Positions 6,426-8,675 of a stretch of 41,694 nt of DNA are shown piece by piece. The translations under genes were made by a program, and so were the position numbers. Origin of the DNA: a virus (Duplodnaviria > Heunggongvirae > Uroviricota > Caudoviricetes); the IMG/VR virus record IMGVR_UViG_2529292985_000032, one strand, 5' to 3'. The notes below the pieces were generated by a model. That model saw only the letters and a program-made list of their open reading frames with translations, ran no database searches and was not told the DNA's origin. The number at the start of each line of letters is the position of its first letter. Position 1 is the first letter of the stretch.

Positions 6426-8675
6426 TCATGATTGGCTCCATGGCAACCACTTACCTTCAATCTTTAGTTGAGTCCAGATTCGCCCATTTACTGGCTCAGA
6501 CTCATAAAAATTGATAATTCCTATTGATTTATCTTTACTTTTTTCTTTAATAACAAAAATACCGGAAGTAACATTAATTGGTTTTCCTGTCGATTCTGGA
6601 AATGCATAATAGAATACTCCTCGTTTTGCTCCATGAATATCCCCATTTGTCCAGTCATAAATATCGGCTGTATCTTTTTTCGACTGTTCGGCCGTAAGGC
6701 GTGCTTGACTCCAGAATTCTATGCCGGAACAGAAAGCAGAACCGGTTGATACATTAACAGTAAGAGTATGCCAACCACGAGAGTTGATACGAAGATAGTT
6801 GTTAATTTCTGTCTTTGTCGTTGGTTTCAAATAGCCTATGGGCTGATTAACAATATTAAATCCAAAGTTTATCCTCAACATTGAGGTATCATTCGAATAT
6901 GAAAAATCTCGATTTATATCAAGAGGTTTAGGTGGCATAATATTATTTCCATCAATATAAACATTAACCACCGAACCAGAAGGAACATAAAGGATAGGCC
7001 ATGCTATAAGCTCATCGCTCTCTGCAAAGAAAGACCATGTTACTCTTTCTCCTGCTGATATATCTAAGCATCGATTGCCAACGATATTATCACCATATGC
7101 AAAAGCAGCTTCAGCAGAATTATTATAGTATTTGTAAATGTCACTGGCTAACCTCGGTGAATTAATTACTATCGGATCGTAAAGTTTTCTGATAGTCAAT
7201 TGTGAGCCATCAGAAACAACTGTTTTTCGCATTACCAGATCACCGATAAATGCAGCGGCTATCTTAAATCCCCACGCAGAAGATGCATTGAGAACCAAGT
7301 GCACCGGATCTCCAAATCGAGTTCCAGCATTAATTGATTGCGTGGCCTCAGCGTAGATATTGTCTCTGTAGCCTGCCATTAGCTCCACACTATCAATAAC
7401 AGGAATCGAGTACTTATCGGCAAGGTATTTTAATGCATTCCCCATTTGTTGAACATCAACTCGCTTAACTGTCGGGAATGGATCGCTTGGGCTAGAAGTA
7501 GAATAAGTTTCGTATGCTTTATCAAATCGCAACGGTAATGGCGTCAACAAAACAACTGGATGCCCCCAAGTTAGCTCCCTAATAATCAGCCTCTCAATCC
7601 AGAAAGTGTATTGCTCAATGTTACCTACTAATGCATAACCGTATTGTGCCGATGCGTCATTAGTACCGAAGTTAATCAACGAAATATCACCAGAATGATT
7701 ATCCGTAAAAGTTTCAAAAGCATCTTGCGCGCAGAAACCTGACCTAGCTCGACTTATGGTGGTTACTTTGCCTGCCCCATATGCACTATTCATTGCTACG
7801 CGAAATTGAGTCTGGACGTTTTCAGAGTCTCGTACAGAGTTAGAGTCGCCGTACCAAGTTACAGAAAATACTTTTCCATCACGCAATTTTTTCAAATTTT
7901 CAGCTAATAAGTTTCTCTGAATATAACTGAACCAGTCAGCATGAGAAAGAGCATCGCCGACTGTATTAGATGGATAAGTCAAATCTCCAGAAAAACCTGA
8001 TAATCCAGCCCCTGTATTCTTGCCAAGCTCGATCATAATTTCTGTTGCCGACCCAGAAGGAGGAAGAACAACAATTGCATTACCTGAACTATCAAACACA
8101 GGCATTTTATTAGCTCTTTCTTTCGCTGATGGTAATTGGTTTATAGGCTCAGGAACACGAAGGCTCCTGTTCATATTTCCACTAACCTGTATATCTACAT
8201 AGTTCTTAGTTGCTGCATCCTGTGGTTCAGTCGGATCACGCAAATTTTTGATATAATTATCCAGAGCATCATAATACTTTGCCACAAATAATGGTTTTCG
8301 AAGTGTAAGGCTGAACAAACTGCGAACATGCTGGATTAGCATAGTTAGCTTATCAAAAGCATCCTCATGCACTTCTGCAAAGAACTTACCCTGATTGCGT
8401 AGATCAGTTTCCTGCGTAACCGGGAGTTCTCGTGATATAGAAATCTTATGACCGTTAGCCAATGCCTTTGACACAATTACATTTCCACCGTTGTATCCTC
8501 CAGCCCCGGTAACTGTGTAATCAGTATCGAGAGCTAGCACAGCGATATTTTCATCAAGGTCAACCACTTGTACTACCAGATCAGATTTCTGGAAAATCCT
8601 GAAGGTATAAGGGAATGTCGTTGTAACACCGTTACCAATGTATTCGTTGTGGTCAACTTCGGTTGAGACCGTCAT
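6426..8675 (-). CDS. Tailspike with conserved N-terminal particle-binding region and central SGNH esterase domain (putative glycan deacetylase)
   Basis: 749 aa; N-terminus YIGNGVTTTFPYTFRI typical of tailspike/fibre adaptors; SGNH blocks GDSNS, GTND, DPVH; last large gene of the structural operon. Confidence 0.8.
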   Translation of the reverse strand: MTVSTEVDHNEYIGNGVTTTFPYTFRIFQKSDLVVQVVDLDENIAVLALDTDYTVTGAGGYNGGNVIVSKALANGHKISISRELPVTQETDLRNQGKFFAEVHEDAFDKLTMLIQHVRSLFSLTLRKPLFVAKYYDALDNYIKNLRDPTEPQDAATKNYVDIQVSGNMNRSLRVPEPINQLPSAKERANKMPVFDSSGNAIVVLPPSGSATEIMIELGKNTGAGLSGFSGDLTYPSNTVGDALSHADWFSYIQRNLLAENLKKLRDGKVFSVTWYGDSNSVRDSENVQTQFRVAMNSAYGAGKVTTISRARSGFCAQDAFETFTDNHSGDISLINFGTNDASAQYGYALVGNIEQYTFWIERLIIRELTWGHPVVLLTPLPLRFDKAYETYSTSSPSDPFPTVKRVDVQQMGNALKYLADKYSIPVIDSVELMAGYRDNIYAEATQSINAGTRFGDPVHLVLNASSAWGFKIAAAFIGDLVMRKTVVSDGSQLTIRKLYDPIVINSPRLASDIYKYYNNSAEAAFAYGDNIVGNRCLDISAGERVTWSFFAESDELIAWPILYVPSGSVVNVYIDGNNIMPPKPLDINRDFSYSNDTSMLRINFGFNIVNQPIGYLKPTTKTEINNYLRINSRGWHTLTVNVSTGSAFCSGIEFWSQARLTAEQSKKDTADIYDWTNGDIHGAKRGVFYYAFPESTGKPINVTSGIFVIKEKSKDKSIGIINFYESEPVNGRIWTQLKIEGKWLPWSQS

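Follow-up and report, generated by a model that had tools for sequence, protein, structure and literature searches.

A predicted esterase-only tailspike with likely O168 specificity beside an acetylation island in a phiV10/epsilon15-type prophage

The window analyzed here is a stretch of 41,694 nucleotides from a virus of the Caudoviricetes (IMG/VR record IMGVR_UViG_2529292985_000032), and the gene under study is a tailspike open reading frame (ORF) on its minus strand (6426..8675, stop codon included; 749 aa) that lies next to a group of prophage acetylation genes. The analysis was carried out in silico and covers domain architecture, conservation of catalytic residues, fold class, association with host O-type and the states of the genes. 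The product belongs to PHROG tail families; tail and tailspike profiles cover residues 1-230 to 1-326, with E-values down to 1e-139. Residues 1-215 (8031..8675, minus strand) constitute a particle-binding adaptor of the epsilon15/phiV10 type and lie upstream of a proposed exchange junction. Identity to residues 1-252 of epsilon15 gp20 is 71% over tailspike residues 1-245, where the likeness ends, and a phmmer comparison of the tailspike with all PDB sequences matched the adaptor only (Dpo31 N-terminus). Over 75-83% of its length, the prophage backbone (9400-34000) shares 97-98% identity with phiV10, ZX5, PAS61 and the O157 typing phages 9 and 10, and the prophage adjoins yfgH-yfgI. Because of the identities of both adaptor and backbone, we assign the prophage to the phiV10/epsilon15 type (Uetakevirus). 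The tailspike has the N-terminal particle-binding domain of this genus and the expected position between virion genes and conversion and lysis genes. A protein cluster look-up showed that its exact sequence recurs in records of Escherichia coli and other enterobacteria.

Directly after the adaptor, residues ~245-490 (7206..7943, minus strand) form an SGNH hydrolase (esterase) domain. The first-pass annotation had read GDSNS, GTND and DPVH blocks in the tailspike; all three are present, accompanied by the SG of block II (residues 312-313). The motifs of the SGNH/GDSL superfamily, namely blocks I (GDS), II (G), III (GxND) and V (DxxH), follow one another in the canonical order, all on the minus strand. 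Block I is GDSNS at residues 276-280 (7836..7850), with Ser278 as the predicted nucleophile. Blocks II (RSG, 7737..7745) and III (GTND, residues 337-340, 7656..7667) provide Gly313 and Asn339 as the predicted oxyanion hole, and block V (DPVH, residues 456-459, 7299..7310) contributes Asp456 and His459 to the predicted triad. A word-seeded search of 5.8 billion proteins yielded 19 relatives of the tailspike. Across their alignment, which spans 21-69% identity to the query, G276, D277, S278, S312, G313, G337, N339, D340 and H459 are invariant, and inspection of the alignment by eye indicates that distant homologues retain the D-x-x-H motif. A profile built from these 19 relatives matched 1238 cluster representatives at E <=1e-3 (283 at <=1e-30), and the two-domain module is therefore part of a large family.

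The AF2 (AlphaFold2) model of the tailspike is confident at residues 245-749 and poor at the N-terminus, which the alignment left uncovered. Its order is adaptor, long helix, SGNH domain (~245-490) with the alpha/beta/alpha fold of the superfamily, and an all-beta domain (491-749); the model contains no beta-helix and no enzymatic domain besides SGNH. The top three Foldseek matches in the PDB are phage proteins aligned over ~585 columns (tail fibre Gp09 of SFP21A, Gp48/49 of Shigella phage B2 and Gp82 of Moo19), and the next ones are acetyl-xylan esterases, TesA and PatB. Matches in BFVD carry the names "tail fiber estarase", Gordonia minor tail proteins and Pectobacterium tail spike. The SGNH hydrolase core that had been proposed from the letters is thus borne out by invariant catalytic residues and by fold matches, and the predicted structure of this region is that of an esterase, not of a non-catalytic lectin. 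Judged in silico, it is highly probable that the domain has the SGNH fold and is catalytically competent. The second domain (residues 491-749; 6429..7205, minus strand) is a predicted beta-sandwich included in the two-domain matches to SFP21A Gp09, Moo19 gp82 and G7C gp63.1. It has invariant residues of its own in the 19-homologue alignment (GWH 634-636, P560 and D575), and Foldseek matches include enzymes with CBM6; it is probably a carbohydrate-binding or assembly domain.

Tailspikes of comparable construction have been characterized. Moo19 gp82 and B2 gp48/49 cleave 4-nitrophenyl acetate, and entry of these phages needs O-acetyl modifications of the O-antigen (PMC11654681). G7C gp63.1 deacetylates the O-antigen without cleaving the chain; its activity is essential, acetylation-deficient hosts are resistant, and indirect evidence makes the deacetylation look processive (PMC10743462). 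As in these proteins, an SGNH domain and a beta-sandwich are joined in one receptor-binding protein that lacks a depolymerase, and the common two-domain, esterase-only layout extends over a structural match of ~375-590 positions. Sequence homology to the characterized members of the class is not detectable by phmmer against PDB sequences, and the structural alignments show 12-18% identity. There are also biological differences. G7C, Moo19 and B2 are lytic N4-like Schitoviridae with another adaptor, whereas the tailspike described here belongs to a temperate epsilon15-like podovirus; the O-antigens recognized by the G7C/Moo19 class are 4s/O22-like or those of S. flexneri, whereas an O168 type is predicted here. 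On the strength of the model, we describe the protein as a G7C-class esterase-only architecture mounted on an epsilon15 adaptor, with predicted activity.

Comparison with epsilon15 itself is also informative. Its gp20 occupies the same genome position, is followed by a conversion module and a lysis cassette, and likewise carries an SGNH esterase, one that deacetylates the O-antigen. In gp20 a beta-helix endorhamnosidase and a beta-sandwich precede the SGNH "petal", which sits at the C-terminus and removes acetyl groups from galactose (bioRxiv 10.64898/2026.07.31.742079). In gp20 the SGNH domain is thus C-terminal and accompanied by a glycosidase, whereas in the tailspike studied here it comes straight after the adaptor. 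The beta-helix O-antigen glycosidase of Uetakevirus is absent, with nothing similar past residue 245 and no beta-helix in the model. A profile comparison of this SGNH domain with the petal esterase of epsilon15 detected no homology (hhalign probability 0.2). The allele on a siphovirus-type prophage, described below, resembles the tailspike from residue 216 onward. We propose that a beta-helix O-antigen depolymerase was swapped at about residue 216 for an esterase-only receptor module. Klebsiella prophages are also known to carry SGNH-built receptor-binding proteins (PMC13123978); these too belong to temperate phages, but their target is capsule and their hosts are of another genus.

The distribution of the receptor module points to a particular O-antigen. 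Module DNA (6426-7950) is found in eight of 5426 complete E. coli genomes, in three at 99.9-100% identity and in five at 73%. An O168-type wzy gene is also present in eight of the 5426, and these are the same eight genomes. At face value this coincidence has a probability of ~1 in 10^25, a figure that is an upper bound on significance, as the genomes are possibly related. Some independence of the association is nevertheless supported by the two module alleles residing on podovirus-type and siphovirus-type prophages at two loci, by the diverse sources of the isolates, and by the tailspike protein cluster, which includes proteins named from E. albertii, Shigella boydii and Shigella dysenteriae. 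In the best-matching genome (NZ_CP067426.1; L005:25026-37215) the wzx and wzy genes of the O-antigen cluster are annotated as members of the O168 family. The cluster also holds gmd/fcl/manC/manB (GDP-fucose) and a 201-aa WbbJ-like acetyltransferase, which is an identical protein in all five genomes inspected. L-fucose is present in O168 (PMC10606467). This antigen is closely related to that of S. dysenteriae type 4, according to the title of Perepelov et al. (2007) as cited in PMC7685785, and type 4 antiserum is reported to cross-react with an isolate of E. albertii (PMC6927306). As a rule, Uetakevirus tailspikes are O-antigen specific (PMC10408124). Taken at the level of genes, these observations make it likely that the tailspike is specific for O168/S. 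dysenteriae type 4 O-antigen.

The strain name of NZ_CP067426.1, O22:H8, disagrees with its O168-type genotype. A link through that name to the 4s/O22-like host antigens of G7C was considered and rejected, the O-antigen cluster being annotated as O168 with GDP-fucose. Among 50,697 deposited phage genomes we found no close relative of the receptor module (best tblastn matches, 24-28% identity). Phage Kapi1, an O-antigen-modifying phage of mouse E. coli, was rejected as the carrier of the siphovirus-borne allele, as no close tblastn match exists in the phage records.

The acetylation genes occupy a 3.5-kb island (~2900-6400) between the holins and the tailspike. It comprises three genes and has 26-30% GC (guanine plus cytosine), as compared with ~50% in the rest of the prophage, a composition that indicates a foreign origin. 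AT3 acyltransferase #1 (3942..4892, minus strand; 316 aa) is intact, scores 90.4 bits with Pfam PF01757, carries K14-X10-H25 and is identical to a protein in a related prophage (L002). AT3 acyltransferase #2 (5243..6276, plus strand) also matches PF01757 and is a pseudogene; its intact relatives have 339 aa, 104.7 bits and K13-X10-H24. Both genes thus belong to a family recognized by a Pfam domain above threshold and an R/K-X10-H motif in the first helix, the latter as stated for AT3 proteins in PMC9558356. The lesions in AT3 #2 are a TGG>TGA change at 5659, a T6>T5 frameshift at 6068 and a 15-bp expansion of a GGGGA repeat near the 3' end. This (GGGGA)n tract (6228..6250, plus strand) has three units more than in three near-identical prophages. 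Just upstream of the AT3 #2 start, homopolymers vary as well (A5/A6 at 5194 and T6/T7 at 5220). The repeats of AT3 #2 could mark a slippage-prone contingency locus or could reflect simple decay. Against the NCBIfam model of the NolL fucose acetyltransferase, AT3 #2 and its relative in the second island described below score 98 and 80 bits; with a cut-off of 425 these values are far below threshold and provide a hint rather than an assignment. No NCBIfam family was found for the tailspike or AT3 #1.

The third island gene (3221..3652, plus strand) encodes a GDSL/SGNH esterase with a hydrophobic, signal- or anchor-bearing N-terminus. A deletion of 11 bp between ATTATAGA direct repeats (8 bp) cuts the product to 143 aa, and the resulting stop precedes block V, so that the His is lost; the intact form has 231 aa (L002:1822-2517). 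In a comparison with PDB sequences the intact protein best matches the sialate O-acetylesterases 6njc and 7pzg (E ~5e-25), for which reason we group it with hydrolytic esterases. SGNH transferase domains are absent from its match list. The protein could be an eraser acting on the side of the lysogen, or it could be unfused and serve an AT3 enzyme as its SGNH partner. These gene states were read by alignment with three near-identical E. coli prophages, those of strain 154, WGI31CT and WP3-S18-ESBL-09. In the latter two all three island genes are intact, as are the virion genes by annotation; in strain 154, AT3 #2 and the GDSL gene are also intact but AT3 #1 has a nonsense mutation. Many more truncated forms of both AT3 genes occur in public protein clusters.

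A second type of prophage carries the same receptor module. The allele at 73% nucleotide identity encodes a 665-aa protein that is 81% identical in amino acid sequence from residue 216 and has another N-terminal domain (PF18668). It resides on a siphovirus-type prophage at tRNA-Arg beside yfdC, as in E. coli M10 (L006:3822-8923) and GB089. Directly after this tailspike comes a second island with an AT3 gene (354 aa), a lipoprotein gene (334 aa) and another AT3 gene (289 aa). The smaller AT3 protein is 43.5% identical to AT3 #2, and its gene is likewise convergent on the tailspike. The lipoprotein has a Big_2-like segment and SGNH-like motifs (GNSH and DNLH) that were read by eye only, and it has no sequence relative in the PDB. 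Strain 154 harbors both prophage types, and its copy of the 334-aa gene appears in fragments.

The prophage copy in the window is itself damaged and decaying. Just upstream of the tailspike, a 1331-bp insertion of the IS3 family (11107..12437) splits a virion structural gene whose counterpart in E. coli relatives encodes 824 aa without interruption; the limits of the insertion were set by blastn against the uninterrupted relative in strain 154. The insertion flanks overlap by 5 bp in that relative, consistent with a target-site duplication. An identical public contig shows IS3-family ORFs of 121 and 301 aa (HTH_Tnp_1 and rve); in size and ORFs the element is IS2-like. Because a virion gene is split, the prophage is probably defective. 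Public contig AERM01000120.1 (GCA_000193895.2) is arranged in the same way, down to the GDSL stump of 143 aa and the insertion sequence, and records named from Shigella dysenteriae contain a protein identical to the 138-aa stump of AT3 #2 (5243-5659). The window thus probably derives from a Shigella-like genome with a defective prophage, in which only the tailspike and AT3 #1 are intact among the tailspike and island genes.

Taking these data together, we favor the following explanation, to which as a whole we assign a probability of about 0.6. The ORF would be the sole tailspike of the prophage, and its receptor would most likely be an O-acetylated O-antigen of the O168/S. dysenteriae type 4 kind. 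On the model of G7C, the virion would attach to an acetylated repeat, hydrolyze its O-acetyl group with the chain left uncut, let go and bind again, and in this way it would cross the O-antigen layer and reach the outer membrane. The acetyl group removed would most plausibly be written by the WbbJ-like acetyltransferase of the host cluster, as wclK does for G7C; this is the simplest scheme, given that the O-antigen cluster supplies an acetyltransferase of its own. The island would be a lysogenic-conversion module that most likely changes the acetylation pattern of the lysogen's O-antigen and shuts out phages with this receptor module, both those of its own kind and the unrelated siphovirus-type prophage.

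The position and protein family of the island genes suggest a seroconversion and exclusion role of the phiV10 Oac type. Like the AT3 genes here, phiV10 Oac, Sf6 Oac and OacB/C/D are AT3-only membrane enzymes encoded beside the tailspike of temperate O-antigen phages, with the difference that this prophage has two paralogous AT3 genes and a free-standing GDSL gene, and an esterase rather than a glycosidase tailspike. In the passages of PMC11854483 and PMC9558356 that deal with phiV10, its O-acetyltransferase modifies the O157 antigen and blocks reinfection by phiV10 itself. This happens even though the phiV10 tailspike is not an esterase. Lysogens of epsilon15, in contrast, turn acetylation off through a transacetylase repressor, whereas the prophage described here encodes acetyltransferases. 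If the island excludes phages bearing the module, its action is to be described as masking or repositioning acetyl groups, not as writing and erasing the same group, and we consider the former more likely.

Several considerations weigh against this explanation. Residues 245-749 find no match when compared by phmmer with all PDB sequences, and with 20.7 bits the match to Pfam PF13472 (Lipase_GDSL_2) stays below the gathering threshold of that model, 32.9; the domain is a divergent superfamily member, recognized through modeled fold and motifs and not through the Pfam model. The esterase petal of epsilon15 appears dispensable for infection (bioRxiv 10.64898/2026.07.31.742079), and the esterase here need not be essential either. 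The eight genomes carrying the module are perhaps not phylogenetically independent, in which case the co-occurrence statistics may be overstated. Native O-acetylation of O168 is suggested only by the acetyltransferase gene of the cluster. The double lysogeny of strain 154 means that exclusion is incomplete or lost there; AT3 #1 is inactivated in that strain, and the pattern of this single case is compatible with failed or decayed exclusion. Finally, enzymatic activity, substrate, infection mechanism and exclusion role are all matters that we infer.

The first-pass annotation had gone further and proposed that the tailspike and the adjoining prophage acetyltransferases may form a write/erase pair on the receptor. 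The adjacency is real, with one of the two AT3 genes broken in this copy, and in part the proposal gains from the second prophage: both unrelated backbones with the module have two AT3 genes and a third gene beside the tailspike, with one homologous AT3 pair, and each of the eight O168-type complete genomes is lysogenic for at least one of the two prophages. Under this alternative, an AT3 enzyme of the prophage would install exactly the O-acetyl group that the tailspike removes, and the virion esterase would act as a receptor-destroying enzyme that frees progeny from lysogen debris or lysogenized cells; the acetylation by one prophage could even create the receptor. Moo19 and B2 offer some precedent, as their entry depends on O-acetylation of the Oac type, Oac being an AT3 enzyme and at least oacD being phage-borne. 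However, a receptor present only in lysogens would not allow spread to naive hosts, and the O-antigen cluster already encodes an alternative and more obvious writer. The adjacency by itself is not evidence of a pair, because the slot is a generic conversion slot across the genus: in epsilon15 the interval from tailspike to holin is occupied by O-polymerase and inhibitor genes, and an acyltransferase is listed there for most of the related E. coli prophages whose tailspikes are of other, non-esterase kinds. Around four distant homologues of the module, which are 37-48% identical and lie on phage contigs from marine or other environments, no acyltransferase neighbors were found. In the window two of the three island genes are dead and the prophage carries an insertion sequence in a virion gene, and the phiV10 precedent is one of exclusion and not of receptor creation. 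We therefore regard writing and erasing of the same group as unlikely.

Slightly less credible still is the idea that the SGNH domain has an accessory role or that its catalysis is unimportant, with the C-terminal beta-sandwich binding the receptor and the esterase loosening lipopolysaccharide or being dispensable. The invariant residues of the C-terminal domain would fit this idea, as would epsilon15, whose infection does not require acetyl groups and whose esterase is slow (bioRxiv 10.64898/2026.07.31.742079). But epsilon15 has an endorhamnosidase to rely on, unlike the tailspike described here, in which SGNH is the sole enzymatic domain; moreover, its catalytic residues are all conserved across very divergent homologues, and in the esterase-only G7C the activity is essential. 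That the substrate is some other acetylated glycan (enterobacterial common antigen, colanic acid or capsule), with the O168 association due to clonal descent of lysogens, seems improbable: the eight genomes may be related, and enterobacterial common antigen and colanic acid are indeed O-acetylated in E. coli (WecH, PMC9558356; wcaB/wcaF annotated in the NZ_CP067426.1 region), but these glycans are common to most E. coli while the module occurs only with O168 wzy, is carried by two different prophages at two loci and also turns up in records named from three further species or groups, and O-antigen specificity is the rule in the genus.

A more speculative and rather doubtful reading is that the island works as an acetyl "editing kit" that matches the esterase tailspike. 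The GDSL protein would act in the periplasm and strip the native O-acetyl handle, and the AT3 enzyme or enzymes would re-acetylate the O-unit elsewhere, so that the lysogen becomes invisible to both phage types with the module. As a corollary, the surviving AT3 #1 may be domesticated and may shape the difference in O-acetylation between S. dysenteriae type 4 and E. coli O168. Another possibility bears on a question left open in PMC9558356: the GDSL protein, being unfused, could supply the SGNH partner that an AT3-only transferase lacks.

Esterase-only tailspikes are a recently recognized alternative to depolymerases, and most of the characterized ones come from lytic phages; here one is found on the well-studied temperate phiV10/epsilon15 backbone. 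Esterase tailspikes and phage genes for O-antigen acetylation are both kinds of element that had already been described. The relevant passages of the Klebsiella study mention prophage acetyltransferases and treat acetylation and deacetylation as a possible layer of phage-phage competition; a specific esterase receptor-binding protein combined with an AT3 cassette is not reported in those passages (PMC13123978). What is new is the presence of the module and O168 wzy in the same eight of 5426 genomes, and the occurrence of the module on two unrelated backbones, each with two AT3 genes and a third gene. The value of the system lies in its sharply predicted receptor, its natural series of intact and broken island alleles, and its unfused SGNH gene beside AT3-only genes. 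The allelic series lets the parts of O-acetyl writing, erasing and repositioning in superinfection immunity between two unrelated prophages in competition for one O-antigen be tested, and the unfused gene bears on whether AT3-only enzymes use separate SGNH partners. In addition, the module could serve as a typing or targeting reagent specific for O168/S. dysenteriae type 4.

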